Below, one piece after another: positions 6,001-64,000 of a DNA stretch of 64,000 nucleotides. Under the pieces are notes generated by a model. The model had not been told where the DNA came from. It searched no databases and worked only from the letters and a program-made list of their open reading frames with translations. Position 1 is the stretch's first letter, and each line of letters begins with the position of its first letter. The DNA lies in assembly GCA_964016885.1 (NCBI GenBank), contig OZ024741.1, forward strand, positions 300,204,001 to 300,268,000. The letters are read 5' to 3'. A program made the position numbers and the translations under genes. This DNA comes from Eledone cirrhosa (lineage: Eukaryota).

Positions 6001-7028
6001 CGTCTCACTAACAGAGCTGCAGTCCTGGGTCAAGCGAAGACCTAGAGTGGATACCTGGCACCTCGAGTGCCTTCAGGGGCTCACAGCCCTCTACCAAGCG
6101 GAAACGGAAATCAGCGGAGACGCCACTTTGACATTCTATAGGGGACTAGAGGAGGTTAATTGCGAAGACGTTCTCGGGGAAACTCTAGGCATCGAGGAGG
6201 ACGTACTGACCAGTCTGTTCGGGAGGACTTTCCATCCAAGGCCTATGAATAACCTGCAGAGGTCTCTAGCCTGGCGGTTCTACCGAGGAGCTCTACTAGT
6301 TCGAGACAAAATCTACATGCAAGGACGCCCTGGCAGAGATCCTGCCAAAAGGACCTGTCAAAGATGCGAGCAGGACATTGAAACCGTTCTGCACGCAATT
6401 GTTCAGTGCCCAGGGGTGACCGACCTGTGGAATTATGTCGAACAGCTACTGTCACGTGTGCGACGCATTCAGTTGTCAGCCGAGTCCATCGTGAGGATCA
6501 TCCCGCTGCCTTCAATTAAGAATGAAGGAGAGGCGGTGTTCCTCTGTCTGGTGGCTATGGCGAAAGAGGTATTATGGTGGACGAGGCTAAAAAGACTGAG
6601 GGCAAATATCTTTCTCTCCGGACAACAATGTATCCCCTTCTTTAAGTACCACTTCAGATGAAAGGTGTGAGTGGAGAGAGAGGTGCTACACCGCAGTAAA
6701 TTCGCTGAAAGGTGGGTGAATTTGGCAAAAATGGCCCGAGTGAATGGGCCTTCTCTGTATATAAACCTGTAGGTTGAGGAAGTTAAACAGAGAGAAGACA
6801 GGAACACTTACAAAACGTGTTCCTGGTGTTGAGGGTTGTTCTATCCACGGGGTGTAAAACAACCCTGCAGTAACATTCCCCCCTATTGGGGATTTCATTT
6901 TTTTTTTTATTATATATAGTTTATTGTTATTTATTAATGTTAAAGTTATATGATTTTTATGTAAAACCCCCGCCGTCACGTCTTGTAATGTCCCATTTCT
7001 GTACGCCCCTGTGGCAAATAATGAAAGA
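3040..7028 (+). mobile_element. Tx1/L1-clade non-LTR retrotransposon, 5'-truncated within ORF1, decayed
   Basis: APE endonuclease, RT and C-terminal CCHC motifs occur in order; the 3' end (..gcccctgtggcaaataatgaaaga) runs into a (TCTA)-like tract. Confidence 0.9.
3403..6772 (+). pseudogene. ORF2 (APE endonuclease - reverse transcriptase - CCHC zinc knuckle) with many stops and frameshifts
   Basis: MSTIQVGCLNVR, AITES, VYAP, GDWN; KSPGLDGL, FRPITLLN, KAFDRVDH, RQGCPLS, AYADD; CQRC..ETVLHAIVQC. Confidence 0.9.
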
Positions 7029-21229: not shown

Positions 21230-21399
21230 ATATATATATATATAGTAAATGGGTGAAAAATGTACACATATGTACAAACGAGAGCCTAGATATACGCACG
21301 AATATATATATGCGTATGCATGTATATATATATTTAGGTTTGTTGGTTCACCACTGGATAGAACTGGTCATTCTGTATGGTCAACCTGGATGTAATATT

Positions 21400-21799
21400 A
21401 GGGAGAGCACTCGACGTAATGCAACTCACCCGTCTTCGTTTGTGTAGTTGGTGGTGCGAGTACGGAGTTAATTATTATAAAATAACAGGAGGCTGGACTG
21501 GTGAAATTTCTTAAAAGGTTTATTATACTATGATCATTTCAGTGACCGAGTTCAGTATGAAACCGGTGACATCATCAGGTATTCGAAATTTAACAAAGAA
21601 TATAATAGACAAAATCCATGGGGCTGAAAAGCAGGGGCAGGAGGATGGCCGAACATTTAGCAGCTTGGGCCGCCCTCCTGTCACTGTTTTTCAGCCCCAT
21701 GGATTTTATCTATTATATTCCTTTGTTAAATTTCGAATATCTGATGATGTCACTGGATTCTTACTAAACCCGGTCACTGAAATGATCATTGTATAATAA

Positions 21800-21804
<5 letters not shown>
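21400..21804. mobile_element. PLE pLTR remnant forming a ~290-bp palindrome (21516-21804) with a type I HHR on each strand
   Basis: Minus arm: auac CUGAUGA..GAAA ugauca UA guau AAUAAA; plus arm 21737-21794 is equivalent. Confidence 0.75.
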
Positions 21805-23009: not shown

Positions 23010-23405
<396 letters not shown>

Positions 23406-23561: not shown

Positions 23562-23599
23562 GCATATATATATGCATATATATATATGTATACATATAT

Positions 23600-23720
23600 A
23601 ACAAAGGAGTTATGGTAAGGAACCAGATAGACCATAACGCACCAGAGTACTCAATACTTTAGGTAGTATAGTGGGTAATAGGAAAAAGTATGACCTCTGC
23701 CGTCGGGGTCACACTTTTTC

Positions 23721-24381: not shown

Positions 24382-26518
24382 CATTCATTGGAAAGAAGGA
24401 TAAAGTCTACACAAAACAAATTTTATAGTTAAAAACTGAAGGTGAAAAATGCACAGTAGTATATTTAAAAATTATTTTTTCTATAATCCGTCAGAATATA
24501 TATACACCTTTACATATATATATATGTATGTATGTGCATGGGTACATACATGGGTGTATGGTTTTGTCTGTGTGTATATAGGTGATTTACTTTTTTTGCT
24601 GTGTACGTGTTTATGGTTCTCAAAATTCACCACATGAATGCGGTGATATTTAAATTATTCTAGAAATGTATACAGACGCATTAATCAACGGTTTGTTTTA
24701 ATGTTTTTAGAATGAATTATGACTGTTATGCATTTTAAATGCATATAATATAATCGGGATTTATTTATATTCATACTTAGATACTTACACTCATTCAATC
24801 ATAAATGTAAATCATGAAAGTGACATGCCTTTCGACGTAAGATATGTATATGTCAAAGAAATTCACTACTTGTCAAATTTGATTTTAAGCTGGTCTTAGT
24901 TATATTCTCTTTTTATATCAATGCTGGCTCTCTTTGAATATTTCAAATACGTTATTGTTTGAATGAATTGATTTATAGTTTGTTGTCTTTGGAAATTTCA
25001 GTAAGATTTATCGGCAAAGTAAATTTGTGTTATAGGTCAAGCAAGTTATATATGTAACTTCGTAAAAGTCACAGAGAGCTGGATATTATATTATTGGATA
25101 TGGTTACCATATGGTATGACTATACTTTTAGCAGCCATAGTTTTGTGAGAGATACATTTAGGAAATCAAAACAATTTCTCAAAGGTTATTAATATTGGGA
25201 ATGCAGAAACAAATGTGTGAATAACAAAAATATTCAATGTGCAAACGTTTTATATATTGGTTTTATCATCTTTCTGTTCGCCATCATTCAAAGCATAGGA
25301 AACAAGTTATTCATATCGTATATTTACCGGATTATAGCCAAGAAAACATAAAAAAAATATATCTCAGGTAAGTATTAATAAAACAGCATTGAAATGCCTT
25401 CGATTCTGACACCAACATATAAATATAGCTATTATTCACTCTGCAGGCATTTAAAAGCAATATATTGCATATAAACAAAGATACATGGATAGCCATAGCG
25501 CCATTCCCATGCATGAAACTTATATCACTTATGAAATACTTATATGCAATCAGCCTATTGGAGATTGACATATTTCACTTATACATACTCGTAAAATTGT
25601 TAATTTATTTTGATATATTGCTTTTGTTAACCCAAATCTTACGCACAAGTTTAGTTAAAAAAACATTTCTATTCAGAAGGCATACAATGTCATTCAAATA
25701 TAATTGTTCTTTATATTACATTTGTTTCCTGCCTTTTCCCTCTCAATAAATTATTTATCTAAATGTATCGTTATGAAACGATGCATTTGTTATAGAATGT
25801 GAGAACTAATGATCCGATATGAAATACAACATCGATGCAACAAACGTAAGCTACACGGTACTATAGATATTAAACCAACATTCAATGAATGTAAAAGCTT
25901 TCTCTTTATAATCTACATCTTCGTTAAAACGACAACCAAATGCCAGGTGAACTAGTTGCAAATCTAATTTGGGCTGTCATCCGGCGACTAAATAGGTGTT
26001 TAACTATCCACGATGTCACTGCTTAGAAACATGATATTATCAATTAATTACTAATGAGCTCAATTACTATGTTGCATAGTGTATTTATACATGTTTAGCG
26101 AAAACTCTATGTATTATGTTTGTCAGTTCAGCTCATGTGAACAGACTAACTTGTTCCAGTGATGTTAACGTGTTAAGAACTCCCATCTTCTTTCGTGTTT
26201 ATATATTCCAGTGGAATAGATTTCATCCTTTTATAACGGCACTGTTGAATGTCAAGGACATTTACGAAAGTAGTATATCTTTACCTAAGCATGAGAATAT
26301 ATATATATATATATAATGTATAATAAACAATACAATATAATTACCTCATTACCAGAGGTTTCCCGAATAAGACGAATGCGAATATCGTCCTCATTCGTTC
26401 GTCGGACAAGGCAATTTAAACTTATTTATTATACATTCAATTTTGCTCTGGTACTTACATAGAGCACTCTTCACTCCTATGACTTTTTCAATTTTCTACG
26501 GAAATATATATATTTTCA

Positions 26519-26559
<41 letters not shown>

Positions 26560-26565
<6 letters not shown>

Positions 26566-27414
26566 TATGTACACGTACATACATATATGCATACAGACTT
26601 ACAGTAGTATGTATATATATATACATATATGCACACATATATATATGTACGTATGGATTCACCGAAAATTTCTTATAATGCGCGGTGTGTTTGTAAACAA
26701 ACATCCCGTATTAAGCCGTGTGGTCTAGCAACCATCGTTGCACGTTTGTTCAACACTGACAAACGAACGCTGTACTATTTTCAGGCTTATTAGCTATCGT
26801 CAGCAACGTATACCTTCCTGCCAAATTGTTGAACGTATATACTTACCTTATGCATATTAACGGTTGAGTAGCCCAATTTGCATATCGAGTGGGTTAATCA
26901 GCCGGGTGCACCGAAAACGATAACGGAAACAATAAAACGAAATTTCATTTCCCACTCTTAGTAGGGCTCTTACTTAAATATAAGTATGTACACGTACATA
27001 CATATATGTATACAGACGGACAGTAGTATGTATATATATATGTACGTGTACATACTTATATTTAAGTAACATCCGTACTAAGAATGGGAAATGAAATTTC
27101 GTTTCATTTTTTCCGTTTATCGTTTTCGGTGCACCCGGCCGATTAACCCACTCGATATGCAAATTGAGCTACTCAGCCGTTAATATGCATAAGGTAAGTA
27201 TATACGTTCAACAATCTGGCAGGAAGGTATACGTTGCTGACGATAGCTAATAAGCTTGAAACTAGTACAGCGTTCCTTTGTCAGTGTTGAACAAACGAGC
27301 AACGATGGTTGCTAGACACTACGGCTTAATGCGGGATGTTTGTTTACAAACACACCGAGCATTATAATAAATGTTCGGTGAGTCCATATGTACATATATA
27401 TATATGTGTGCATG

Positions 27415-27506
<92 letters not shown>

Positions 27507-30014
27507 CTACTGTACGTATGTATGCATATACGTATGTACGTGTACATACTTATATTTAAGTAACAGCAGTACTAAGAGTGGGAAATGAAATTTTGTTTCA
27601 TTTTTTCCGTTTATCGTTTTCGGTGCACCCGGCCGATTAACCCACTCGATATGCAAATTGGGCTACTCAGCCGTTAATATGCATAAGGTAAGTATATACG
27701 TTCAACAATCTGGCAGGAAGGTATACGTTGCTAACGATAGCTAATAAGCTTGAAACTAGTACAGCGTTCCTTTATTAGTGTTGAACAAACGAGCAACGAT
27801 GGTTGCTAGACACTACGGCTTAATATGGGATGTTTGTTTACAAACACACCGAGCATTATAATAAATGTTCGGTGAATCCATACGTACATATATATATGTG
27901 TGCATGTATGTATATATATATATATATATACTACTGTACGTATGTATGCATATATGTATGTACGTGTACATACTTATATTTATTTAACAGCAGTACTAAG
28001 AGTGGGAAATGAAATTTCGTTTCATTTTTTCCGTTTATCGTTTTCGGTGCACCCGGCCGATTAACCCACTCAATATACAAATTGAGCTACTCAGCTGTTA
28101 ATATGCATAAGGTAAGTATATACGTTCAACAATCTGACAGGTAGGTATATGTTGCTGACGATAGATAATAAGCTTGAAACTAGTACAGCGTTCCTTTGTC
28201 AGTGTTGAACAAACGAGCAACGATGGTTGCTAGAAACTACGGCTTAATACGGGATGTTTGTTTACAAACACACCGAGCATTATAATAAATGTTCGGTGAA
28301 TCCAGACGTACATATATATATATATATACATACTACTGTACGTATGTATGCATATATGTATGTACGTGTACATACTTGTATTTAAGTAACAGCAGTACTA
28401 AGAGTGGGAAATGAAATTTTGTTTCATTTTTTCCGTTCATCTTTTTCGGTGCACCCGGCCGATTAACCCACTCGATATGCAAATTGGGCTACTCAGCCGT
28501 TAATATGCATAAGGTAAGTATATACGTTCAACAATCTGGCAGGAAGGTATACGTTGCTAACGATAGCTAATAAGCTTGAAACTAGTACAGCGTTCCTTTA
28601 TTAGTGTTGAACAAACGAGCAACGATGGTTGCTAGACACTACGGCTTAATATGGGATGTTTGTTTACAAACACACCGAGCATTATAATAAATGTTCGGTG
28701 AATCCAGACGTACATATATATATATGTGTGCATGTATGTATATATATATATATATATATACATACTACTGTACGTCTGTATGCATATATGTATGTACGTG
28801 TACATACTTATATTTAAGTATCAGCCGTACTAAGAGTGGGAAATGAAATTTCGTTTCATTTTCTTCGTTTATCGTTTTCGGTGCACCTGGCCGATTAACC
28901 CACTCGATATGCAAATTGGGCTACTCAGCCGTTAATATGCATAAGGTAAGTATATACGTTCAACACTCTGGCAGGAAGGTATACGTTGCTGACGATAGCT
29001 AATAAGCTTGAAACTAGTACAGTGTTCCTTTGTCAGTGTTGAACAAACGAGCAACGATGGTTGCTAGACACTACGGCTTAATACGGGATGTTTGTTTACA
29101 AACACACCTAGCATTATAATAAATGTTCGGTGAATGCATACGTACATATATATATGTGTGCATGTATGTATATATATATATACATACTACTGTACGTATG
29201 TATGCATATATGTATGTACGTGTACATACTTATATTTAAGTAACAGCAGTACTAAGAGTGGGAAATGAAATTTTGTTTCATTTTTTCCGTTTATCGTTTT
29301 CGGTGCACCCGGCCGATTAACCCACTCGATATGCAAATTGGGCTACTCAGCCGTTAATATGCATAAGGTAAGTATATACGTTCAACAATCTGGCAGGAAG
29401 GTATACGTTGGTAACGATAGCTAATAAGCTTGAAACTAGTACAGCGTTCCTTTATTAGTGTTGAACAAACGAGCAACGATGGTTGCTAGACACTACGGCT
29501 TAATATGGGATGTTTGTTTACAAACACACCGAGCATTATAATAAATGTTCGGTGAATCCATACGTACATATATATATGTGTGCATGTATGTATATATATA
29601 TATATATATACTACTGTACGTATGTATGCATATATGTATGTACGTGTACATACTTATATTTATTTAACAGCAGTACTAAGAGTGGGAAATGAAATTTCGT
29701 TTCATTTTTTCCGTTTATCGTTTTCGGTGCACCCGGCCGATTAACCCACTCAATATACAAATTGGGCTACTCAGCTGTTAATATGCATAAGGTAAGTATA
29801 TACGTTCAACAATCTGACAGGTAGGTATACGTTGCTGACGATAGAAAATAAGCTTGAAACTAGTACAGCGTTCCTTTGTCAGTGTTGAACAAACGAGCAA
29901 CGATGGTTGCTAGAAACTACGGCTTAATACGGGATGTTTGTTTACAAACACACCGAGCATTATAATAAATGTTCGGTGAATCCAGACGTACATATATATA
30001 TATATGTGTGCATG

Positions 30015-30091
<77 letters not shown>

Positions 30092-30488
30092 TACTGTACG
30101 TATGTATGCATATATGTATGTACGTGTACATACTTATATTTAAGTATCAGCCGTACTAAGAGTGGGAAATGAAATTTCGTTTCATTTTTTTCGTTTATCG
30201 TTTTCGGTGCACCTGGCCGATTAACCCACTCGATATGCAAATTGGGCTACTCAGCCGTTAATATGCATAAGGTAAGTATATACGTTCAACACTCTGGCAG
30301 GAAGGTATACGTTGCTGACGATAGCTAATAAGCTTGAAACTAGTACAGTGTTCCTTTGTCAGTGTTGAACAAACGAGCAACGATGGTTGCTAGACACTAC
30401 GGCTTAATACGGGATGTTTGTTTACAAACACACCTAGCATTATAATAAATGTTCGGTGAATGCATACGTACATATATATATGTGTGCA

Positions 30489-30536
<48 letters not shown>

Positions 30537-30643
30537 CTACTGTACGTCTGTATGCATATATGTATGTGTGTGTACATACTTATATGTAAGTAACAGCCGT
30601 ACTAAGAGTGGGAAATGAAATTTCGTTTCATTTTTTCCGTTTA
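26560..30643. repeat. Satellite array: 8 full ~400-490-bp units (starts 27042, 27536, 27960, 28362, 28794, 29216, 29640, 30120), one partial unit, and one inverted, more diverged unit at 26560-27030
   Basis: Direct repetition; length varies in the internal (TA)n. Confidence 0.95.
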
Positions 30644-30664
30644 TATATATATATGTATATATAT

Positions 30665-32680
30665 ATTTATACTTGGGGAGGGTCATATTTGTGTAATATT
30701 GCCAGAGTTAATAACAGAACACACTCACTGTTTGGTTGGTTTTCGCTTCTCGCGGTCTTTTATATCTGCGATCTAACTTAATCGGTCCTCAATGTTGCCA
30801 TTGACTGACCGACGGTCAAAAATAATACAGATACAATATAGACACAAACACATATATATATAGTTTACATAATTTACATAAATCTTTCGTTGCACATCTG
30901 CAACATCGTCAGTGGTGTTATATTTTTTCCTCCTGTTGTGTTGTATGTCGACGCCATTTTTTTATTCAGTCTGTCTATATATTTATTTATTTATTTGCTT
31001 GTTTGTTTATTTTATTTTGTCTTCTTTGCGCATGCGTTTGCGTGTGTGTACAGTGTTGTGTGTGCTGTGTGACTAGTGTGTATAGTGTTGTGTCTGGTGG
31101 GTGACTAGTGTGTGTTTATGTGCTTGTTGTTATTGTGCTTGTGTATGTATTTATTTATCTTATTTTATTTTATTTATTTACTTATTTATATTTCTCTTAG
31201 GTCAGAGTTGTTTGTTTGGGTGTTGTTGTTGTTCCACTCATTCTTTCTGTTTAGCTTTGGTCTTTTAATTTCTATTTCACTGGCCTATCTGATTTGCCTA
31301 TCTGCTGGGTCATTCCTATGTTTAGATATTATTCTAATTTCTATATTGTCTATGTTACCGTCATGTTGTTGTCTAGCATGTTCGTATAGTACTGACCCGC
31401 TTTTTCGTCCTTTTAGTTCCCCCCAGTGTTGGTCTATCCATTCACCTATGCTACGAGCTGTCTCACCTATGTATGTTGTTGTCATGTTTCTGCAAGTACC
31501 CTCTGTACATCTTATGCTATAGACTACGTTTCTAGTTTTACAGTTTATCCGGGGGTTCACCTTACATATGATACATTTCCTATTGGTACAGTGGGTTTTC
31601 TTAAAAGGGTAGGTTTTGCTGATCAGGGATTTTATGGTGGTTCCTGGCTTTTCTACCACCTTTATTTTTAAGTGGGTCTTTCTCAGGGCCTTTCTACACT
31701 GGCTAGCTAATTTCCCTCCAGGGGTGGCGTCCACAAACATGACACTCTGATATCTCTGGTTGTCGTACCATGATGTGGCCTTCCCTATCTTACGTCTAGC
31801 CCTATCTAAGCTATTCCATGATTTGCTCCTGTATAGTGGGCAAATTCCTTTCATGTCCAGTTCTATGAGGGTCTTATACTTTTCCATGGCTCCTTCGTAT
31901 ACTCTGACTCTGTCTCTTTGGTTGTAGCCAGAGAACTGCATGCGGTTGATGAAGTGTTGGATGTGTCTTTCCATTTCTGTTGGGTCGCACATGCTGGACA
32001 CATTCTTCATCACTCGTACCAAATCTGCGATCAGAATATTAAACTTAGCACTACTGGACATTGCTGAGTTTTTGAGTATCAGGTATTTGGAGGCCATGGG
32101 TTTAGCATAGTGTGAGTGGAGAATTTGGGCTCTCTCGTCTATAGTGTTAATCCAGAGTTCTGTGTCTAATACAGGTAGTCTATTGTTAGGGTGTTTGGAA
32201 GGGAAGTCGATAGTTACAGTTATACTCTGGTGTATGGAATTAGCTATCTGCTGGATGCTTTCCATCGTGCTACGTTCTAAATCAAACTTGTTAGTGCTCT
32301 CTAGTGGGGGTGTTCTTATAACTATATTGATATCGTCTACATAACGAGAGTACATGATGAGGTCTATGGAGCTTTCATTAAGGAGATCTTATAGTCTCCT
32401 TTCCCACCATACCATGAAAAGGTTGGCAACATCACCAGCTATGCTGACGCCGATGGCCGCTCCCTCATTTTGGGTGTAGATTTTCTCATTGAATTTAAAT
32501 ATGTGGCCATTTAGGGTAGTTTTGATACTAGCCCCTATTGCATGTGCGACCATTTTTCTTACCTGATCAGTATTTTGGGGGGTCCGTATAGCTTTGGTCC
32601 ACCCAATCCACCTTCCTATGGGAGTCTGTTTAGCCATTGAGGTTATGGTGGGGGTCTACATCTTATAGGTCTACTAGGGC
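30665..32680 (-). mobile_element. 5'-truncated Penelope-like element (RT C-terminal half + GIY-YIG + pLTR with HHR at 30877-30914)
   Basis: GAAIGVSIAGDVANLFM, RYVDDI, LPVLD, CTNRKCIIC, NVVY..YIGETAR. Confidence 0.92.
31285..32637 (-). pseudogene. PLE RT/GIY-YIG coding remnant (ORFs 31285-32355 and 32389-32637)
   Basis: Peptides nearly identical to 40253-41641. Confidence 0.88.
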
Positions 32681-32738
32681 AGATAAACTATATATATATA
32701 TATTTACTATATATCACACTAAACTATATTTATATATA

Positions 32739-33983: not shown

Positions 33984-34121
33984 TGTGTGTGTGTATGTAT
34001 GTATATGTATATATATATACATATATGTATGTAAATATATATATATATATACATATATATATTTATATATATAGATATGTATGTGTATATATATATACGT
34101 ATATATATAAATATATATATT

Positions 34122-34277
34122 ACGAAGGAATTGTGGTAAGGAACCAGATGGACCATAACGCACCAAAGTACTCAATACTTAGGGTAGTAGAGAGGGTAAT
34201 AGGAACAAGTGTGACCCCGATGGCAGAGCTTCAGCCGTCCAAACGGCTTGACGTCTGCCGTCGTGGTCATACTTGTT

Positions 34278-34282
<5 letters not shown>
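34122..34282 (-). mobile_element. pLTR terminal fragment with an 84-nt fold-back (34199-34282) built from the 3' half of an HHR
   Basis: The arms match GAAAC ggc-uugagcucu-gcc GUC gggg seen at 38863-38890. Confidence 0.7.
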
Positions 34283-34316
<34 letters not shown>

Positions 34317-34317
<1 letters not shown>

Positions 34318-34868
34318 TTATTCCGGGTTGAATCGGGGGTAATCACACTAAGTAAGGTACTCAATACATTACAGAGTATAAAAGTTTTAATATAGAAGAG
34401 CTTCTATAGGACTAGAACTGTTTTATTCGTGAGAAATCATCAGGAAGCTGGCTGTCCAAATAAGTGGTAGTATTTATATCTTTCCTTTTCAGATGGTAGG
34501 AGAGGGTGGGTTGTTTGGATGGGTGGGTGTCATTGGTTGAAGCATTTAAAGAAAAGGGAGTTCATTAAAAGCTAATTCTTTATAGCTATAATATTATGAA
34601 AGGCAGAAAAAATACTGTGAACAAATTCATAATTGGAATACCTATCCTTGTTTATCACTTAGTCTAACAATGCATGTAAGACAGGTGTCTACAGAATTGG
34701 TAGCGTTCAATGATTTAAAGAAAAGCGAAATTCTTTAGAAATTAATTATTTAAGGCTGAAATAAGGGTGACAAGGGCAGAAAGGGTTCCTTTACAGATTC
34801 AACTGTTGGGGTGAACCCCCTTATTGTGAAGTTTCACTTAATATATATTCCAGGTTTCGAAAGCACAT
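34317..34868 (-). mobile_element. Naiad-type pLTR/3' UTR fragment with a mutated HHR (GAAA to AAAA)
   Basis: Homologous to 23079-23213 and 53870-54070. Confidence 0.75.
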
Positions 34869-38996: not shown

Positions 38997-39239
38997 ATTT
39001 TTATGGTTGTGTGTGTGTGTGTGTGTGTATGTGTATATGCATAATTACATACAGAGTATTTAATGTTTATTTTCATTGATTATTTGTTCCAGGACTTGTT
39101 GAGTGCTCTAAATCAGCTATAAACATTTATACCTTTTTCTATTTATTTATTTATTTATTATTTATCGTATTCCCAACTATTTGTTTACCTCTTCCACATT
39201 TTTATTTTTATATATATATAATATTTATGTATTTTCTTA

Positions 39240-43181
<3,942 letters not shown>

Positions 43182-44640: not shown

Positions 44641-44701
44641 TTTCATTCTGATGACTGAAAGCCCATTTTGTTTGCTTTCGAGAAACGACTGGTAAATGAA
44701 A
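44641..44701 (+). ncRNA. Type I hammerhead ribozyme in a solo pLTR (about 44540-44797)
   Basis: uuucauu CUGAUGA cu gaaagc..gcuuuc ga GAAAC gacug GUA aaugaaa (7-bp stem I). Confidence 0.75.
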
Positions 44702-45239
44702 TAATTATCTTATGTTGTTTATTATATAACTAATAAGCTCTGTAACCTACATAGAGCACTCTTTTTTCCTGGACCTTTCCGACGGAATTACTTCATTCAT
44801 ACATATATATATATACATATATAAAGCGTGAAACAAAAAAACATTTCATTTGTGCTGCATCTTTGTTTTTTGGTTTTTTTAAATCTCTCTTCATATATTA
44901 AACTATATATATATATACACACCCATATACATACATACACATACACACACACAAATATATATACATATATACATATATAGTATACTAGGGAGAGGATCAG
45001 GGGTGTATAATACTCCACTTATCCAACAGGCAGTATAAGGTTAGCTCGATGTCTGAGGACAGAGCCGTGATATAATCAATAACAAAGAACGCCTATAGCA
45101 TATGCATATCTTTACTTGCTAACATTGTTTCATCCGCACTATAAGTGGGACTCATCAGAGCATAAAGGTTAATTACATACCACACAAGCAATAACAAATA
45201 CAAGACATTGAAGAAATAAAGAATGAAAAATAATAAAAG

Positions 45240-47185: not shown

Positions 47186-49580
47186 CTAGCTAATAGGTTT
47201 AAAGTAGAAGAAAGAGCTTAATATTCGGTGGGGGCAAGAGGAAAATATTTCTGACTTTCTGTTTAGTAGAGGGCATTTAGCAAATATAATAGAGTGGGAT
47301 TCGGCAAGGCATAGGTTACATACTCTATTATGAGGAGTATATGGATGGGATTTAGCAACCTGCCGCCAAGTAAGTGTGTAATGTGTTCGTGCATTTTTTA
47401 AATTGTGGACGTACGCTGCCAAGGAGGTGGAGTTCCTCAGTTTATTGTGTCTAAAAGTGCACTGGTGAGAGTTAAACCTGGTCTTAAAGGGGGTGGAGGT
47501 TGATCCTATATAGGTTTTAGTGGACGCCGTAGTTACCACATCACACGCGTAAACTATGTTTCTAATAAGGCAGAAACCATTCAGGGGGCAGCCTGAAGCC
47601 CTTCTACAGTTACAATTTCTGGTGATGCTATTCTCAGAATGATCACCACTTGTGTTCCGGCCCGCTCTGTCCACTACCGTGTTTTCCCCTAGGCTTAGGT
47701 TGTCCAGGCCTTCCTTTATTTTCCTATTATTAGTAATGGCCAGATGAGAGGCCAGATTTTGGGTTGTAGAATACGAAAGTTTAACAACATTCTTATTGAG
47801 GATAGAGTGGTACCTATTACCAGGAGGGAAGTTCCTTTCTAACACAGAGAAGAAGGCCCTAGGAATATTTATAGCCACTTCAGAGTTAAAAGGGGGGTTG
47901 AAGTATGTATTCAATCTTCTTCTATTCTTTTTATTCTTTTTATTTCCATCACTATTATTAGCATTATTATTTCTACGGTTACTATGCTCACCTAGTTTAT
48001 GCGGGAAGCTGCGAGGCCTACCATTGCTATTACTTAGACTAATGGTGCCCTGCTGGTTCATTCCACCGGCATTTAGAACCCTCCCATTCGCGACACCTCT
48101 ATTACCAATGGACATATTATGTGTTATAACAACACTGGTAGAGCTACTATTAGGACTATTATTTCCCTGGGTATAATACAATTTGTCCCTAAAGCCGGAT
48201 CTAGCTAAGGCATCATTATAGTAATCAGCCTGCGAGTCAAACGCCGCTTCACTATGTGAGAGTGAACTTATTCTGTTAGATACGCCCTTCAGTATACCGC
48301 TGATGACCGACCTAGGGTGGTTAGAGTTGGTATTCACGTAAGTCAGCAATTCATTAGGCTTATGGTACGGTGTGTACGTATGGTTATCCAAGTCTAATGT
48401 AACATCCAGGAAGTTCACAGTTCTATCATTTATATCCATAGTAATGGATAGGTTAAAGGTTTTAAAAAAAGCTATGCAGCTTTTTCCTAATGCGCTCTAT
48501 ATTATACTTACTAGTATCTATGGAGAGTAGGGCGTCATCCCGGTACAACCCGCCCCTAAGGAATGGGAAGTTACTATGCAGTTCATTGAGGAGGTATAGC
48601 CCAACTAAGTCGGTGACCTGAGCAGAATCACTCGACCCCATAGTAATGTCAAAATTATCAGGTGTGTTTTTTCTCGTCCATACATTATCCTCAAACATGA
48701 TAATGGTTTTACGTGCAACGAGAACAATATCTATCTGTGGCCTTGTAATTGCCCCCCTCTGCATGGCTAGGATAAGGGCCTTATTGAGGATAATAGGAGA
48801 TATAGATGTATAATAAGCATCAATATCAAATTGGATGAATCTGAGTGAGTCACGACCACAATCCGTAGATAACCACCTAATGACTTCACTAGTGTTACCC
48901 CAAAGCTCAAGGAAAGTTTTTTCTCTAACCAGGGGAATAACGCTATCCAAGATTCCCTTACTAATAATCCCCAGGTCAGACTTGGAGGGGCAGATAAGCC
49001 TAACTGAGGGTCTGCTAATAAAATTTTCCTTGTGGTCCTTGAGGGTGAATCTAGGCTGCTTGGGGTAATAAGGCTGAGTGTGTTTATCCAGACCTAATTT
49101 TACCACTATGTTATACCCCTCCAGATTAATATTGTCTAAATTACTCTGCGTTGTTTTTTTGTAGTTCCTATGTAGTTCATTATAGATGAAGCCGCGATAG
49201 GTTTTATAATCCATACTATATAAGTTTTTAGTTTTGTCAGAGGGGACCAGAATGGATTTATTATCCCTAAAGTCCCTAACGATAGAACTTAGTTTACTCT
49301 GAAATTTATTGGTACATCTAGATTTTTTATATCTAATATTCCTAACGAGGGATAATAGCTCACTTTCGAAGTTATCCAACAGGCTATTATGCGGGGGGCT
49401 CCTATATGTCTTAAATCCATAATTATTAAAACTACGCTTCTCTTCAGGGCTATCATACTTCTTATCAAAATGGAACGCACGCCACCGAACACGTTTTACG
49501 AAGGAGTTTATGCTAGTTATCAGTGATTTCTCATATGAGATTTTAGGGGGGGGGGGAATATTCTTCAAGGAAATGGGTAA
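47186..49580 (-). CDS. Naiad A RT-GIY-YIG polyprotein: one frameshift at a homopolymer (~48462), first few codons missing
   Basis: SLKNIP, SDKT, TLKDHK, FDIDAYY, FDITMGSSDSA, LYRDD, FLDV, SNHP, CNCRRASGCPLNGFC, IVY..YIGST, CNLC. Confidence 0.85.
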
Positions 49581-49622
<42 letters not shown>

Positions 49623-49708
49623 GTAGGTCCCGGGTTGAGTCGGGGATAACCACAGTAAGTAAGGTACTCAATACATGGCAGAGTAAATTTTTTTTATTTT
49701 ATAGAAGG

Positions 49709-51675: not shown

Positions 51676-53827
51676 TCAGTCGGGGGGCCGGGGGGGTCTG
51701 TAGTTTTTGTAATTTGCATAGTTCTTGTGCATGCAATTAGGGGAGTGTTCCGAGATCTTGTTGAGGAGAGGGCCTTTGGCGAATAGAATCTCATAGCTCT
51801 CGGAGATACAGAGCCCACAGCAATTATGGCCTCCCGTGTATGATCGCGCTCTCTGGAGTAGTCTCCATTGGGTCTTGAAGGGGATGGAGTTCCTTTTTAG
51901 GTGCCAGATGTGGGCGGCGAGTGTAGTTTGGTTAGATTTGTCTGGGCGCCGGAACGAATGTGTGTGGGCGTACCAGCGAGTCTTAAAACTATTAGAAGTC
52001 ATCCCGATGTACGAGTTTCTTTTTTCATCGGGGCCTGACAGTACATCGCATATATACACGAGATCTTTTTTTAGACAGTTGTTGTTGAGAGGGCAAGTCG
52101 TCTTATCAGGGAATTGCAGTTGCTATCGGTTGCTGGATGGGCTTCGGAAAAAGTAGACTTATTTAGCTTCTTGATGTTGTTGTTGGCTAAGTTTCTGGCT
52201 AGATTAGGTGTGGTAGAGTAAGAGAGTCTAATGGTATTCTTATTAAGGATAGTATAGTACCTATGTTGGGTGGGGAAGTGTTTTTGTAAGAGAGTGAAGA
52301 AAATTTTAGCTACAGGTGTTGAAACTTCTCGGTTGAAGGGGGGGGGGGGGGGGGGGGTTGTACCAGCTAATGTGCCTTCGCCTATTCTTCCTGGGTGGGC
52401 GTGGGGCTATAGTAAGGTAGGTGATCTTATCTCTAAAGCCGCTGCGGGCCAGGGCCTCGTTGTAATAGGGGGCTGCTGCTCTAAAGATATCTTCATTGGC
52501 GGCGAGGCTAGATATCCTAATGGAGACACTTTTTACTAGGTTGTCTAATATATTTTTGGGGTGGTTAGAATTAATGTCTATATATCTAAGGGATTCATTA
52601 GGTTTGTGGTACGGGTAGTAAAGGGAAGTTTCTAAGTCGAGGGTAACGTCTAGGAAGTTAGCTTTAGTTAAGTTCGAATCTAAGGTAATCCTAAGGCCTA
52701 AGTTTTTAAAGAAGGTGTAAAGGTTTTTCCTGGTCCCATCCGTGGTCCTGGGGTTGATTTTGTGGAGGGCAAAGAGGCCGTCATCTCGGTAGAGACCGCC
52801 GGAGAGGCCTGTGAAGAGGGTCTTCAACCTGTGGAGGATGAACAGACCCACAAGGTCACTAATTTCAGCTGAGTCGCTAGCACCTATGCTAACGTCGAAG
52901 AGGGTCTCAGATTTGTTGTTGATCCAGTGGGATCTGTCATGGTAAAGAAAAGTCTTACGTGCATGGAGGATCACTTCCTGCTCGGCTTCGGTAATTGTGG
53001 TTAAGTTCCTGGCGAAGTTAATCGCGTCAATCAGCAGGCTCTCTGAAATGGAGGCGTAGTAATCCTCGATGTCTAGCTGCAGGAAGCGGGTGTTGCTTTT
53101 GTCGGGCAAGTCACGGAACCACGTGATTGCCTCCAATGTCCTATTCCAGAGTGGCAGGGGTGAGGCAGCACGTAGTCTAGGTAGAATCCTGTCCAAGATT
53201 TTCTTACTGACGGATCCTATGTCAGACTTGGTAGGGTTAATCAGCCGGACCGACGGTTTATTGTCGAAGTTGTTCTTGTGGTCTTTCAAGGTGAAGTGTG
53301 GACCCTACCCTCAGAGGTTCTGTCCGGTCTTCCAATTTAAGGGAAGTGGCGATCTTCTTTCCGGCTAAGTTTGTTTCAGTCAAGGTGGTGTCATCAACTT
53401 TTTTGTACTTTGCTGTGATGGCATTATCAGCAAGCTTGTTGTAGGTGTCGGGAATAACCGCATAAGTGTTTTTAGTTTTGTCTGAAGGGACGTGGAGGTA
53501 CGGGGAACTTTTCATTTTCAGAAGTTTCTCCTTTAAGTCCGTTTGGAAAGGTATGTTGACTTTCCTGAATTTAATATTTTTGATCATTTGAAAGAGGTCT
53601 TCTTCAAATGGTTCAAGTAGGCTGTTGGTGGGTGGAGCCTTATTAGATTTAAAGCCGTACATCTCGTTATTGGTAGATGCTACATCAGGGTGGTCGAAAA
53701 AGAACGATCTCCATCTAATTCGTTTGATGAATTCATCAGTCCGTATAATGAGGGTTTTTAGGTACTGTTTCCTTGGTGGGATAGGAATGTTCTTCAAGGA
53801 GGTATTGAGGTCGATTCTTGTTAGCAT
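51676..53827 (-). pseudogene. Naiad B RT-GIY-YIG ORF from its ATG, broken by a few frameshifts
   Basis: MLTRIDLNTSLKNIP, SDKT, KDHK..RLINPTKSDIG, LYRDDG, SNHP, YIGMTSNSFKTR, CGLC. Confidence 0.9.
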
Positions 53828-53959
53828 ATTTTCTTGAGGATGGTTATAAGGGCACTAGGGTGTGCTTGGATACGTAGGTCCCCGGTTGAGTCGGGGATAA
53901 CCACAGTAAGTAAGGTACTCAATACATGGCAGAGTAACATTTTTTTATTTTATAGAAGG

Positions 53960-54010
53960 AGCTTCTACAGGACTAGTACTGTTTCATTCAGATGAAATCT
54001 TCAGGAAGCT
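53960..54010 (-). ncRNA. Type I hammerhead ribozyme, 5' pLTR of Naiad B
   Basis: Identical to 49709-49759. Confidence 0.85.
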
Positions 54011-56441: not shown

Positions 56442-59400
56442 CTACTAGAGAATAATAAAAACATTTATATACAAACACAGAAAGTGTATTTCATTAAAAT
56501 GGAACAATACCATATCAAGAAAATCAATGTACTTTCAGAACTTACGAATAACGGAGAGAAGAGTGATTGATGGAAAAACAATGTTGACAAAACGAAAAGC
56601 TTTTTTGGAATGCAAATACGAAGCAGGAAAGTGAGATAAGCAATACTTGTGCTAGGATTGAAAACGTTGAATAATAGAATGGGTCCTGTTACTGCTAGCG
56701 TAATCATTTAGTGAAGTAGAGCTGGCAAAGGTGAAAATTTGTATTACTGGAGTGCAATAGGGGAAAAGGCATTTTCTGTATTTTCTTTGACAGATAGCAA
56801 AATAGTGCACGTTACCTAGAATATCTACAAATACAGGATCAACCAATTAAAGTGTAATTGTAGAATTCCTTTAGATGTCCCACTTCAACTGCATTGTCTC
56901 ATGGAGAATGTAGTGTGTATAAATATACCGTTGTCCGAGAAAAGAAACACACGCAAATAACTATATAGGATTCATATTTAGCTCGTGTAAGTAACGTACG
57001 ATTTATATATACATCCTTTTAAATATGAAAGTCAGAAAAATACTCCACTTCTACCATTATTTGGTGCTTACATAATTCCAACATAATTGATATTACTAAT
57101 CTTTACAAATGGCATGCGTCTGAATATGCCATATCGTAGCTCCAGAAATAACTATATCGGATTTTAGCCGTTCGAATCACCAACATGCAAATATTAAAAT
57201 CATTAGTTGAATGGTTGCCAGTCATACCCAAATTCGTCCGTACTTTCCCGCCGACGATCAAAATGTTATGTGCAAATCTCCTCTTGGCCTCCGCTACATA
57301 TCACTTCCTATACTTTCTTTCTTTCAACCTTTTTCTCATTCAGTTCTGCTTAGGGAAATATATTCGGGTGGTTTTCATTTAAAACGTACTGGTTGTATTT
57401 AATGTTATTCTACTTTATAGGTACATCATGTTTCAAATATCATAAAAATGCTATGTAATGATGATGTCGTTTAACTGGCATTACTTCTTTAAATATATTA
57501 TACTGCTTTGATGATATACGAATGAACGAAATTAACATCCAATTCTTGGAGCCAATGCCTTTATATAATTCTGCCTACAATTTTACAAACGTGTGTTAGA
57601 AGAATATGATGGCTTACTATTTCCATCTTAAGCATTATTGTCTTTGTGTCAAAGCCACAGCTTCAATATCGTTTGTGATATTGACGTACATGAAATATGT
57701 TACCTTAATACATTTTGCTGTATATATCTCATACGAGAAGTGATCACTTTCTTTCTAAGTGTGGAACCTCATTCCGTTTCAAGAGCTATTGGCGTGTCTG
57801 TATATTACCGTTATATATATATATAGGGGTGTATGTATGTGCGTGTCTGTAGGTGCGTACTGTTACAATACCATCTCAAATATTCGATCGAAACAAACCC
57901 CGATCGACACACAAAGAGAAAATACAATTGTAAGCAATACGGTATGTGCTCCACAATGGAAAAGCGCATTTTTAAAATATCACTTACTAAGGTGAAATTA
58001 GAATTAATCTGGGGACATATAAATACGTAGGCGTAAACTCTTACTAGAAAAAAATTACTATATGTACACAGCTACTCGTTTAAAAACCCGGACCTGCGTA
58101 AATCAACAGCATTCATAAAGTAAATCTTAGATTTGAAACAGAGTAATATAATTTATGTGTTATTATGGAAGATATAAAGATCTTCCAGGTCTTATCAGGG
58201 GGTAAGTGGAGATTACAAACATTGCTCTTTCGAAGAAATGGGTATTATGTCTGGGAAAGGTCTATGCAATTTAAGACTCGGCAGAATTTTTAATTGCCAA
58301 CATAGAACACTGAGAGGGAGGGGTGGGGGTATTGGCTCGTATATGTAGACAAAATATATATAAGAAACTAATGTGACTTATTTTATTTCCATTACTTGTT
58401 TTAGTTACATATATCCGTCTGTTCTATGTTAAGTATTTTCTATTGAATATTACAATTTTTGCTAGGTTGTATGGAACATAATAATTGATACTATCAAACT
58501 GTAGTTATATTAAATGTACCTCCATCCATATAGGTGATGCGTATTCCAGTATTTCGATTAACAGTGCAGACTGCAAATGAAATTGACGTACAAGAGACTG
58601 AGCATTAGAGATTCAGAGTGACATTGTGTGTGATAAAGGCTCTTTGAAATATAGGTGCAGCCTTTTCAACGGGCGTACAACATGTTCCGTTCACCTAGCT
58701 TCACATGAGTCGATCTATCGATCTATCCTATTCGAAACGTAATGATTGCCAACCAGACTGATTAACCATTCAGCCTTCTTCACCCATCGTTAGCATATTG
58801 CCAAATATATTAAAACATTTATATTGCTAATAGATCCTAATATATATGTCGTGTATAATGGTCAATGAAAAGCGAACTCTACTTCATGAATATCAAATTA
58901 AATATGAGAGTAAATCAATAATCCTTCTCATAAAACAAACGCCCAATAGACTTCTACTCAAAACCAAACAGCAAATGAGTATATTATCCGCCTTCCTCTA
59001 ATTACGGCAAATAACATTAGATAGCAGGAAGTCTTTCACCTAAAGGTTCATTCCATGATGCAAACGTAAGTGTGAAACAATATCTTTCTGACAATGAACT
59101 ATGATACACCCACTCTATTTATAGACGATATTTATGTAATACTTTGCATTACTGTTGTCTTAAATGAGGTGCGTCTGTGTATGTTTGTACGTAGACATGA
59201 ACACGAACAATCATGATTGTTCCACGTTAACATTAGGTACGTTATGAAACAAATGGCTTTGCTCGATTTACAAAACATATGAACGCATTCCTTATTTATT
59301 TAAAAATACGTCTTTGTAAAACAGGAAATAGCTTTGAGCAGAATTTTGTACTTAGAAACATAAGAAAAATATTCATCTCTCTATAACTGATCCATTTATT

Positions 59401-59471
59401 CCATTATATAGATATGTAGTGCATACATAATTAAGCTATAAAATTAAATATAGATATTTGATTGGCACATG
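56442..59471. repeat. Left arm of a >=3-kb inverted duplication
   Basis: Reverse complement of 60956-64000; matching ORFs on opposite strands. Confidence 0.97.
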
Positions 59472-60955: not shown

Positions 60956-63900
60956 CATGTGCCAATCAAATATCTATATTTAATTTTATAGCTTAATTAT
61001 GTATGCACTACATGTCTATATAATGGAATAAATGGATCAGTTATAGAGAGATGAATATTTTTCTTATGTTTCTAAGTACAAAATTCTGCTCAAAGCTATT
61101 TCCTGTTTTACAAAGACGTATTTTTTAAATAAATAAGGAATGCGTTCATATGTTTTGTAAATCGAGCAAAGCCATTTGTTTCATAACGTACCTAATGTTA
61201 ACGTGGAACAATCATGATTGTTCGTGTTCATGTCTACGTACAAACATACACAGACGCACCTCATTTAAGACAACAGTAATGCAAAGTATTACATAAATAT
61301 CGTCTATAAATAGAGTGGGTGTATCATAGTTCATTGTCAGAAAGATATTGTTTCACACTTACGTTTGCATCATGGAATGAACCTTTAGGTGAAAGACTTC
61401 CTGCTATCTAATGTTATTTGCCGTAATTAGAGGAAGGCGGATAATATACTCATTTGCTGTTTGGTTTTGAGTAGGAGTCTATTGGGCGTTTGTTTTATGA
61501 GAAGGATTATTGATTTACTCTCATATTTAATTTGATATTCATGAAGTAGAGTTCGCTTTTCATTGACCATTATACACGACATATATATTAGGATCTATTA
61601 GCAATATAAATGTTTTAATATATTTGGCAATATGCTAACGATGGGTGAAGAAGGCTGAATGGTTAATCAGTCTGGTTGGCAATCATTACGTTTCGAATAG
61701 GATAGATCGATAGATCGACTCATGTGAAGCTAGGTGAACGGAACATGTTGTACGCCCGTTGAAAAGGCTGCACCTATATTTCAAAGAGCCTTTATCACAC
61801 ACAATGTCACTCTGAATCTCTAATGCTCAGTCTCGTGTACGTCAATTTCATTTGCAGTCTGCACTGTTAATCGAAATACTGGAATACGCATCACCTATAT
61901 GGATGGAGGTACATTTAATATAACTACAGTTTGATAGTATCAATTATTATGTTCCATACAACCTAGCAAAAATTGTAATATTCAATAGAAAATACTTAAC
62001 ATAGAACAGACGGATATATGTAACTAAAACAAGTAATGGAAATAAAATAAGTCACATTAGTTTCTTATATATATTTTGTCTACATATACATTATATATAT
62101 TTTGTATACATATACATCTCAGTGTTCTATGTTGGCAATTAAAAATTCTGCCGAGTCTTAAATTGCATAGACCTTTCCCAGACATAATACCCATTTCTTC
62201 GAAAGAGCAATGTTTGTAATCTCCACTTACCCCCTGATAAGACCTGGAAGATCTTTATATCTTCCATAATAACACATAAATTATATTACTCTGTTTCAAA
62301 TCTTAGATTTTCTTTATGAATGCTGTTGATTTACGCAGGTCCGGGTTTTTAAACGAGTAGCTGTGTACATATAGTAATTTTTTTCTGGTAAGAGTTTACG
62401 CCTACGTATTTATACGTCCCCAGATTAATTCTAATTTCACCTTAGTAAGTGATATTTAAAAAATGCGCTTTTCCATTGTGGAGCACATACCGTATTGCTT
62501 ACCATTGTATGTTCTCTTTGTGTGTCGATCGGGGTTTGTTTCGATCGAATATTTGAGATGGTATTGTAACAGTACGCACCTACAGACACGCACATACATA
62601 CACCCCTATATGTATATATATAACGGTAATATACAGACACGCCAATAGCTCTTGAAACGGAATGAGGTTCCACACTTAGAAAGAAAGTGATCACTTCTCG
62701 TATGAGATATATACAGTAAAATGTATTAAGGTAACATATTTCATGTACGTCAACATCACAAACGATATTGAAGCTGTGGCTTTGACACAAATACAATAAT
62801 GCATGAATAGTTAAGATGGAAATAGTAAGCCATCATATTCTTCTAACACACGTTTGTAAAATTGTAGGCAGAATTATATAAAGGCATTGGCTCCAAGAAT
62901 TGGATGTTAATTTCGTTCATTCGTATATCATCAAAGCAGTATAATATATTTAAAGAAGTAATGCCAGTTAAACGACATCATCATTACATAGCATTTTTAT
63001 GATATTTGAAACATGATGTACCTATAAAGTAGAATAACATTAAATACAACCAGTACGTTTTAAATGAAAACCACCCGATTATATTTCCCTAAGCAGAACT
63101 GAATGAGAAAAAGGTTGAAAGAAAGAAAGTATAGGAAGTGATATGTAGCGGAGGCCAAGAGGAGATTTGCACATAACATTTTGATCGTCGGCTGGATAGT
63201 ACGGACGAATTTGGGTATGACTGGCAACCATTCAACTAATGATTTTAATATTTGCATGTTGGTGATTCGAACGGCTAAAATCCGATATAGTTATTTCTGG
63301 AGCTACGATATGGCATATTCAGACGCATGCCATTTGTAAAGATTAGTAATATCAATTATGTTGGAATTATGTAAGCACCAAATAATGGTAGAAGTGGTGT
63401 ATTTTTCTGACTTTCATATTTAAAAGGATGTAAATATAAATCGTATGTTACTTACACGAGCTAAATATGAATCCTATATAGTTATTTGCGTGTGTTTCTT
63501 TTCTCAGACAACGGTACATTTATACACACTACATTCTCCATGAGGCAATGCAGTTGAAGTGGGACATCTAAAGGAATTCTACAATTACACTTTAATTGGT
63601 TGATCCTGTATTTGTAGATATTCTAGGTAACTTGCACTATTTTGCTATCTGTCAAAGAAAATACAGAAAATGCCTTTTCCCCTATTGCACTCCAGTAATA
63701 CAAATTTTCACCTATGCCAGCTCTACTTCACTAAATGATTACACTAGCAGTAACAGTTCCCATTCTATTATTCAACGTTTTCAATCCTAGCACAAGTAAT
63801 GCTTATCTCACTTTCCTGCTTCGTATTTGCATTCCAAAAAAGCTTTTCGTTTTGTCAACATTGTTTTTCCATCAATCACTCTTCTCTCCGTTATTCGTAA

Positions 63901-64000
63901 GTTCTGAAAGTACATTGATTTTCTTGATATGGTATTGTTCCATTTTAATGAAATACACTTTCTGTGTTTGTATATAAATGTTTTTATTATTCTCTAGTAG
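60956..64000. repeat. Right arm of the inverted duplication (runs off the window)
   Basis: Reverse complement of 56442-59471. Confidence 0.97.

Follow-up and report, generated by a model that had tools for sequence, protein, structure and literature searches.

The window analyzed here, a 64,000-nucleotide stretch of the Eledone cirrhosa genome (contig OZ024741.1, positions 300,204,001 to 300,268,000 of the forward strand), contains multiple copies of a small bulged hairpin that is real and found across the Hydra clade of Penelope-like elements (PLEs). The elements carry it twice in the pLTR: A first hairpin (BH1) follows the hammerhead ribozyme, a second one (BH2) is located in the 5′ UTR of full-length copies, and the (TA)n-joined 3′ ends of insertions fall almost always just 5′ of either BH1 (end site T1) or BH2 (end site T2). 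The twin hairpins probably act as RNA binding sites, which position the reverse transcriptase (RT) of the element at two start points. This arrangement is apparently undescribed: We found no earlier description in a literature search that included the available text of a preprint (bioRxiv 10.64898/2026.07.22.740005), with closed journals and Repbase outside its scope, and the word “hairpin” has zero occurrences in the main text of Craig et al. 2021 (PMC8557442). The hairpins bear on how PLEs, the closest mobile relatives of telomerase, choose their template and acquire a one-sided tail and fold-back ends; in vitro study has so far covered one PLE, with no conserved RNA signal named. A 25-nt motif that is conserved in coral and sea cucumber elements as well as in this genome and predicts both end sites in each family can serve to recognize Hydra elements and derivatives of them that lack coding capacity, helps curators to delimit elements, and gives exact mutations for testing.

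Occurrence and architecture of the bulged hairpin

On the forward strand, BH1 occupies positions 44737..44757 in Hydra family C, where it is followed by the conserved ACU flank, and positions 26445-26465 in family E. The reverse strand carries BH1 of family B (45044-45065), two copies of family A in the 5′ pLTR (53917-53935) and in the 3′ pLTR (49666-49684), the latter from a copy whose T2 end lies in (TA)n near 49619, as well as copies in the 3′ pLTR of an A-like family (34359-34377) and in the fold-back insertions of families A2 (23125-23143) and K (34170-34193), a damaged version in a second family K copy (23649-23673), and the long-loop BH1 of family J (21409-21468). All copies cited in the preliminary description were recovered in their places and on their strands, and its claim of a location 25-60 nt 3′ of the ribozyme cleavage site held as well, the distances from the predicted cut, counted by hand, being 42 nt (family C), 55 nt (B), 30 nt (A), and 60 nt (J). 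Ribozymes in the window include the minimal hammerhead of family C (44641..44701, + strand; predicted cut 44694/44695; motif layout following PMC4209133), that of family B (45118-45161, − strand), whose copy ends at T2 near 44976, and that of the family A 5′ pLTR (53962-54008, − strand). In the 5′-truncated copies at 26445, 34171, and 23649, the arm with the hairpin has no ribozyme; a U3-A8-type core is present in the 34171 family where copies are full-length. The core UUGA.AA, which corresponds to the U3-A8 covariant of PMC4209133, was seen in family K (L309, L317) and in family H (L031-L033), and the family K hammerhead also has long helices II and III.

A genome scan over 3.0 Gb for a ribozyme core followed by CTC..THGAG yielded 3202 matches, mostly from one family, compared with 51 for the reversed pattern. 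Among 86 Hydra loci from other hosts, drawn from metagenome and MAG contigs and grouped into 68 families, we counted the motif 118 times in ORF orientation and seven times on the opposite strand, compared with zero to two occurrences per shuffle in 20 shuffles. A covariance model built solely from 38 instances of other hosts returned nine of the ten cited window copies as its top matches in the window (E 3e-7 to 0.42; next match E 4.9) and missed only the long-loop copy at 21409. When applied to 26 non-Hydra loci, the model gave six matches, of which three are neighboring J or K copies, one is an ORF-unlinked motif copy, and two are ambiguous. The hairpin had been claimed to be absent outside its host clade, and indeed the motif was found in none of the 31 copies of one non-Hydra family and at none of the window's ten other ribozyme sites that are non-Hydra or unassigned. 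Comparison of the whole window with Rfam gave only microsatellite-driven miRNA matches among the 150 listed of 280, the clean pLTR at L133:2950-3250 gave two chance matches (E 2.7 and 2.9), and none of the 41 pattern matches in viral contigs was confirmed as a relative. Hydra PLE contigs were also encountered in 11 loci of bacterial genome records (L186-L196), where they are likely host DNA carried into bins.

The consensus motif reads GCUC-stem-loop-stem-UH-GAGC-ACU and thereby takes in the conserved 3′ ACU; a UA-rich tract upstream also belongs to it. It is present in 44 of the 68 Hydra families from other hosts, where BH1 follows the ribozyme GAAA at a distance of 37-78 nt, and BH2 was located in 28 families (29 before dropping one duplicate). 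The remaining 24 families gave no BH1; those listed stop short of the hairpin, are interrupted by the contig end, or carry a variant, which accounts for part of this set. Since the search in other hosts allowed at most one mismatch to GCTC and GAGCACT, the conservation of these parts follows in part from the search itself; independent of it are the bulge U, which is present in 42/44 families, and the second bulge base, which is never G. Of the bulge and the CUC/GAG element, both previously described as fixed, the bulge U largely conforms, whereas CUC/GAG is replaced by CAC/GUG in two foreign instances: The A-U pair is flipped in L189 and L191, and likewise in BH2 of family A. In published coral and sea cucumber consensuses, inspection by eye revealed the motif in Hydra-2_Amil, in Hydra-2_Ajap, and twice in Hydra-1_Ajap, and a deviant form in Hydra-1_Crog and Hydra-1_Amil. 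The 3′ half of the motif, T[TCA]GAGCACT, occurs four times in the six Hydra consensuses of the supplementary archive of PMC8557442 and has one match each in the Naiad and Chlamys files, line breaks being able to hide further matches; the occurrence in the Naiad file was read by eye as lying inside an ORF.

The upper stem covaries strongly, but not completely as had been stated: In BH1, the successive upper pairs are formed in 42/44, 36/42, 31/36, and 18/27 families, compared with shuffled means of 32.6, 21.1, 15.0, and 11.3, and 34 double changes compare with 10.9 after shuffling, a number reached in 0/500 shuffles (which ignore relatedness). The register with a 2-nt bulge on the 3′ side pairs at a fraction of 0.89, compared with 0.18-0.51 for seven other registers. 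In BH2, covariation is clearly above chance solely at the first upper pair. Because RNAalifold on the gapped alignment recognized the invariant lower stem and nothing more, the upper pairs were counted from the anchors and on the named structure. Single-sequence folding returned the exact structure for one of six window copies, and the pair above the bulge has a median probability of 0.54 in BH1 and 0.10 in BH2. This weak stand-alone folding leaves room for a fold that is stabilized by protein or for a signal at the DNA level. The lower stem folds equally well on both strands; GU outnumber AC combinations by 10 to 5 over five BH1 pairs, which weakly favors the sense strand.

Judged by the domain order and motifs of the ORFs in the window, the hosts of the hairpin are Hydra-clade PLEs and not Naiads, as which they had been introduced. 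With the Hydra PLEs of Craig et al. 2021 (PMC8557442) they share the marks of this clade, i.e., the order RT-CxCX5C-GIY-YIG as well as RWK-like and DKT motifs, and in addition the hammerheads, the (TA)n targets, and the one-sided tail. A single ORF encodes the RT followed by a C-terminal GIY-YIG endonuclease (829-aa ORF of L003; 714-aa profile matches); RWR and DKT are present in the window ORFs, and RW[KR] in 115/120 homologues. Family B has the CxCX5C linker as well as CxxC and CxH replacing CCHH, and these three motifs recur in 113, 114, and 111 of 120 homologues, respectively. In the window, the Hydra ORF of family A (51676..53827, − strand) is broken by frameshifts, and that of family B (47186..49580, − strand), with RT, CxCX5C linker, and C-terminal GIY-YIG, is 5′-truncated and frameshifted. 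Family C (44737) is linked to 714-aa Hydra open frames and family K (34171) to Hydra ORFs with E about 1e-173. A Naiad would have its GIY-YIG N-terminal to the RT, a change of DKG to DKA, and a pLTR without canonical hammerhead; here the endonuclease of families A and B is C-terminal, the window ORFs have DKT and the homologues DK[TS] (120/120), and hammerhead cores are present. A SECIS element, which in Naiad selenoproteins would go with in-frame UGA codons in the ORF and a SECIS core in the 3′ UTR, was likewise discarded: The 829-aa frame is open under table 1, Rfam gave no such match over L133:2950-3250, and by eye the motif lacks the SECIS core.

The protein of family B contains a long Asn/Gly-rich insertion with internal repeat just before its basic patch (window 47186-48496; L003). 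Family J (21409) retained both hairpins and showed a Hydra ORF in 0/12 internal loci, from which it looks non-autonomous. Its loci L297-L308 have a common short frame after BH2 that is broken in most copies and has no Hydra match; with at least 115 internal copies, this frame is probably cargo of a non-autonomous element.

The second hairpin and the element ends

The hairpin had been taken to be single and anchored to the ribozyme. While the hairpin itself stands, its anchor is the end of the element, and there are two hairpins, spaced by 55-83 nt in other hosts (median 64, n=25) and by 67-144 nt in this genome. We collected 204 (TA)n-joined 3′ ends from ten families, of which 201 lie -3..16 nt before BH1 (T1, 91) or BH2 (T2, 110), at a median of 3 nt before the hairpin; the range was chosen after the first end data (74/75 in the first set), the two ranges make up about 12-15% of each reference, and TA microhomology makes the exact offsets uncertain. 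Of these 204 ends, 148 come from families K, C, and J, as do 40 of the 43 fold-back pairs considered below. Ends without (TA)n junction were counted apart and fit T1 or T2 in 24 of 31 cases; in other hosts, 10/11 TA-joined ends and 6/18 other alignment ends fit. The idea that 5′ ends also cluster at these sites failed, since only two of 18 5′ junctions with (TA)n were located there, and because of this lack of clustering, slippage of alignments in AT-rich sequence does not explain the 3′ ends. The UA tract is part of the same arrangement: TAT or ATA occurs ≤10 nt before BH1 in 42/44 families, compared with 7-17/44 in four control windows, and before BH2 in 19/28, compared with 6-10 in controls.

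The position of BH2 was predicted before it was looked up in the two held-out families, for which the search pattern gave the 3′ half loosely and did not name GCTC. Counted by eye, BH2 comes directly after T2 in 98 of 100 matches listed out of 115 for family J and in 98 of 100 listed out of 317 for family K. The hairpin following T2 was assigned by visual inspection in families A, A2, C, and E, where it is either a variant or a degenerate copy. In family A, this is a hairpin with a GCAC/GUGC stem just past T2 (53852..53865, − strand), about 25 nt before the ATG at 53827, which the covariance model missed. In family C, the segment from BH1 up to T2 (44737..44803, + strand) is joined to (TA)n as a “tail”, and internal copies show a degenerate BH2 following it. 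Families C and E (L225, L217-L222) were also observed to hold three hairpin copies, namely BH1, a degenerate copy at T2, and, closer to the ATG, a well-formed copy; the third was not used as an end in the copies examined. The 3′ pLTR of the A-like family (34314..34576, − strand) ends at T2. Seven pLTR units of family K with a period of 299 nt, each with a T2-BH2 junction, were noted at G000:C2:356030060-356031907 and are likely a non-autonomous tandem array derived from a Hydra element.

Fold-back insertions display both end sites at once. Among 44 of them, 42 combine T1 with T2, one has T2 at both ends, and one has an off-site end; 42/43 pairs of the type T1+T2 correspond to p 5e-12 against independent ends. 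Fold-backs were required to be free of an internal (TA)7 run, whereby seven candidates were dropped, and many loci were fetched by T2-ended queries, with no selection on the partner arm. In the window, the family A2 fold-back (23078..23267) has a left arm with BH1 ending at T2 and a right arm without BH1 ending at T1; that of family K (34116..34282) ends at T2 (34116) and T1 (34282), and that of family E (26311..26520) at T1 (26311) and T2 (near 26520). The left arm of the family J fold-back (21327..21804) contains the long-loop BH1 and ends at T2, its right arm stops 46 nt short of BH1. The second family K copy (23595..23695, − strand) contains the damaged BH1. The asymmetry of T1+T2 fold-backs equals the one-sided tail in the legend of figure 2 of Craig et al. 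(PMC8557442), and we infer that the T1-T2 interval is the PLE tail. Its length of 55-144 nt, with two hairpins as bounds, differs from the 30-40 bp given for the tail in that paper.

Possible function of the twin hairpins

The preliminary description had suggested an RT recognition or priming signal. The positions of the element ends support this idea, and from them we infer binding and priming as follows: The element protein would bind each hairpin, the cut (TA)n target would anneal to the UA tract just 5′ of it, and copying would begin there. Since copying would begin just 5′ of the hairpin, the hairpin would position a start without itself being copied. A single RNA carrying two RT units would serve both DNA ends of a double-strand cut, with priming at T1 for one end and at T2 for the other; the T2 product would carry BH1 and the spacer as one-sided tail, and joining of the two cDNAs would give the fold-back structure. 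Two-ended priming, if true, would be a distinct way of retrotransposing. A more far-reaching version, which we consider possible but rather unlikely as a whole, is a two-ended TPRT in which an RT dimer reads two TAR/7SK-like arginine-sandwich hairpins with an RxR patch and primes both break ends, so that tail and fold-back would be primary and any twin-hairpin RNA would insert into (TA)n.

The closest experimental parallel is the Poseidon PLE PAc (Frangieh 2024, PMC11167929): It has two internal RT starts downstream of the hammerhead, the interval between them is the tail, RNA 3′ of the starts is needed, and the enzyme, a predicted dimer, cleaves and extends both strands. However, this element belongs to another clade, its starts are located within the ORF in an AC-rich stem-loop for which the available text names no conserved repeated motif, and there is no homology between start and target, whereas the UA tract of Hydra elements matches (TA)n. 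The hairpin cannot explain all PLE tails, since a non-Hydra PLE family has several end sites without the motif.

The best surviving alternative, though an improbable one, is that the motif acts on DNA as cruciform, cDNA hairpin, or plain sequence, with the GIY-YIG endonuclease cutting beside it and the ends arising when a longer intermediate is resolved. In its favor, endonuclease-mediated resolution is the origin of the tail given by Craig et al. 2021 (PMC8557442), and on plasmid DNA the endonuclease of D. virilis depends on the tail (as cited in PMC11167929); furthermore, GAGCAC with its flank is nearly palindromic, and the lower stem folds equally on both strands. Against this, the upper pairs covary in a register with one-sided bulge, which suits a single strand, the tail ends of the Poseidon element are RT starts on RNA (PMC11167929), and the target-matching UA tract sits where a primer would anneal.

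A less probable reading sees the hairpins as control sites of translation or transcription, i.e., as a protein-bound operator or a TAR-like elongation signal, with their nearness to the ends being secondary. It draws on the 28 foreign cases in which BH2 precedes the ORF start by about 15-51 nt and on the resemblance of the bulge to TAR and 7SK, and such a role could add to the main one; yet the hairpins keep a much more constant distance from the end site than from the ATG, no ATG follows BH1, and the translation signal proposed earlier has become less likely with family J, which keeps both hairpins while lacking a Hydra ORF in 12/12 loci. Least probable, by a small step, is that the hairpins direct RNA processing by a host nuclease, polyadenylation, or pausing, thereby generating two RNA 3′ ends that prime like non-LTR RNA: The ends do keep a constant distance on the 5′ side of a structure, but with independent RNAs half of the fold-backs would be T1+T1 or T2+T2 (seen in 1/43), and the Poseidon enzyme starts internally on unprocessed RNA (PMC11167929).

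With RT positioning as the preferred reading, the hairpin can be compared with known signals of related enzymes. LINE 3′ stem-loops are copied into each insertion. Here, the 91 T1 ends are without both hairpins, and the 110 T2 ends are without BH2. In the stringent LINEs UnaL2 and ZfL2 (PMC1636434, PMC4176376), a small stem-loop with a needed bulge is bound by the protein for template choice, as would be the case in Hydra elements; however, it is single and located in the 3′ tail, whereas Hydra elements have two, each 3′ of its start and with a sequence common to families. The template boundary element of telomerase and DRT10 (PMC12632851) is a stem-loop beside the template that fixes where a related RT works, but it lies 5′ of the template and stops synthesis, whereas the Hydra hairpins are 3′ of the end sites and 5′ junctions are unclustered (2/18). 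By analogy, the Hydra hairpin would thus work like an RT-recognition stem-loop, yet it matches neither the LINE 3′ stem-loop nor the template boundary element.

The bulge further resembles the arginine sandwich of HIV TAR and 7SK ASM3 (Pham et al. 2018, PMC6189040), in which a paired purine and a bulged U are followed by G-C, A-U, and G-C pairs (A22, U23, G26, A27-U38, and G28-C37 in TAR; two-U bulge U40U41 in 7SK). The first upper pair of the hairpin is Y-R in 42/44 BH1 and 27/28 BH2, and the bulge has its U in 42/44; GCTC/GAGC in this comparison is part of the search anchor, with two flipped variants. The Hydra hairpin differs in that the loop closes the other side, an ACU flank is added, and the A-U pair flips in the instances named above (two foreign ones and BH2 of family A). 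On the protein side, a basic patch precedes W(F/Y)NPP in 116/120 homologues, and R488 and R490 are 98% conserved among 50 aligned sequences, within a flexible block of pLDDT 67. Such a basic patch may be a nuclear signal instead, and arginine-sandwich recognition of the Hydra bulge, for which this likeness argues, is conceivable but doubtful. The protein model (pLDDT 90.9) retrieved TERT first in a fold search (E 1.7e-8) and gave no clue to the RNA site.

Other elements of the window

A high-copy CCHH-type PLE with CX4CxxC linker, which is Neptune/Nematis-like (window 30642-32683 and 39215-42372; L321-L350), has its CCHH-endonuclease PLE segments at 31285-32388 and 40253-42372 and is motif-free in 31/31 copies. 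Its copies meet (TA)n at about 218-230, 259-270, and 283-287 after the ribozyme, and it may have another end signal. A tandem array of a roughly 424-nt unit with hammerhead core and (TA)n (27456-30644) is retrozyme-like and hairpin-free, and an inverted copy lies at 26530-27068. The window also includes a broken non-LTR element with matches to APE endonuclease, RT, and zf-RVT (3475-6661) and a 3-kb inverted duplication with 98% identity (56442-59471 and 60956-64000).
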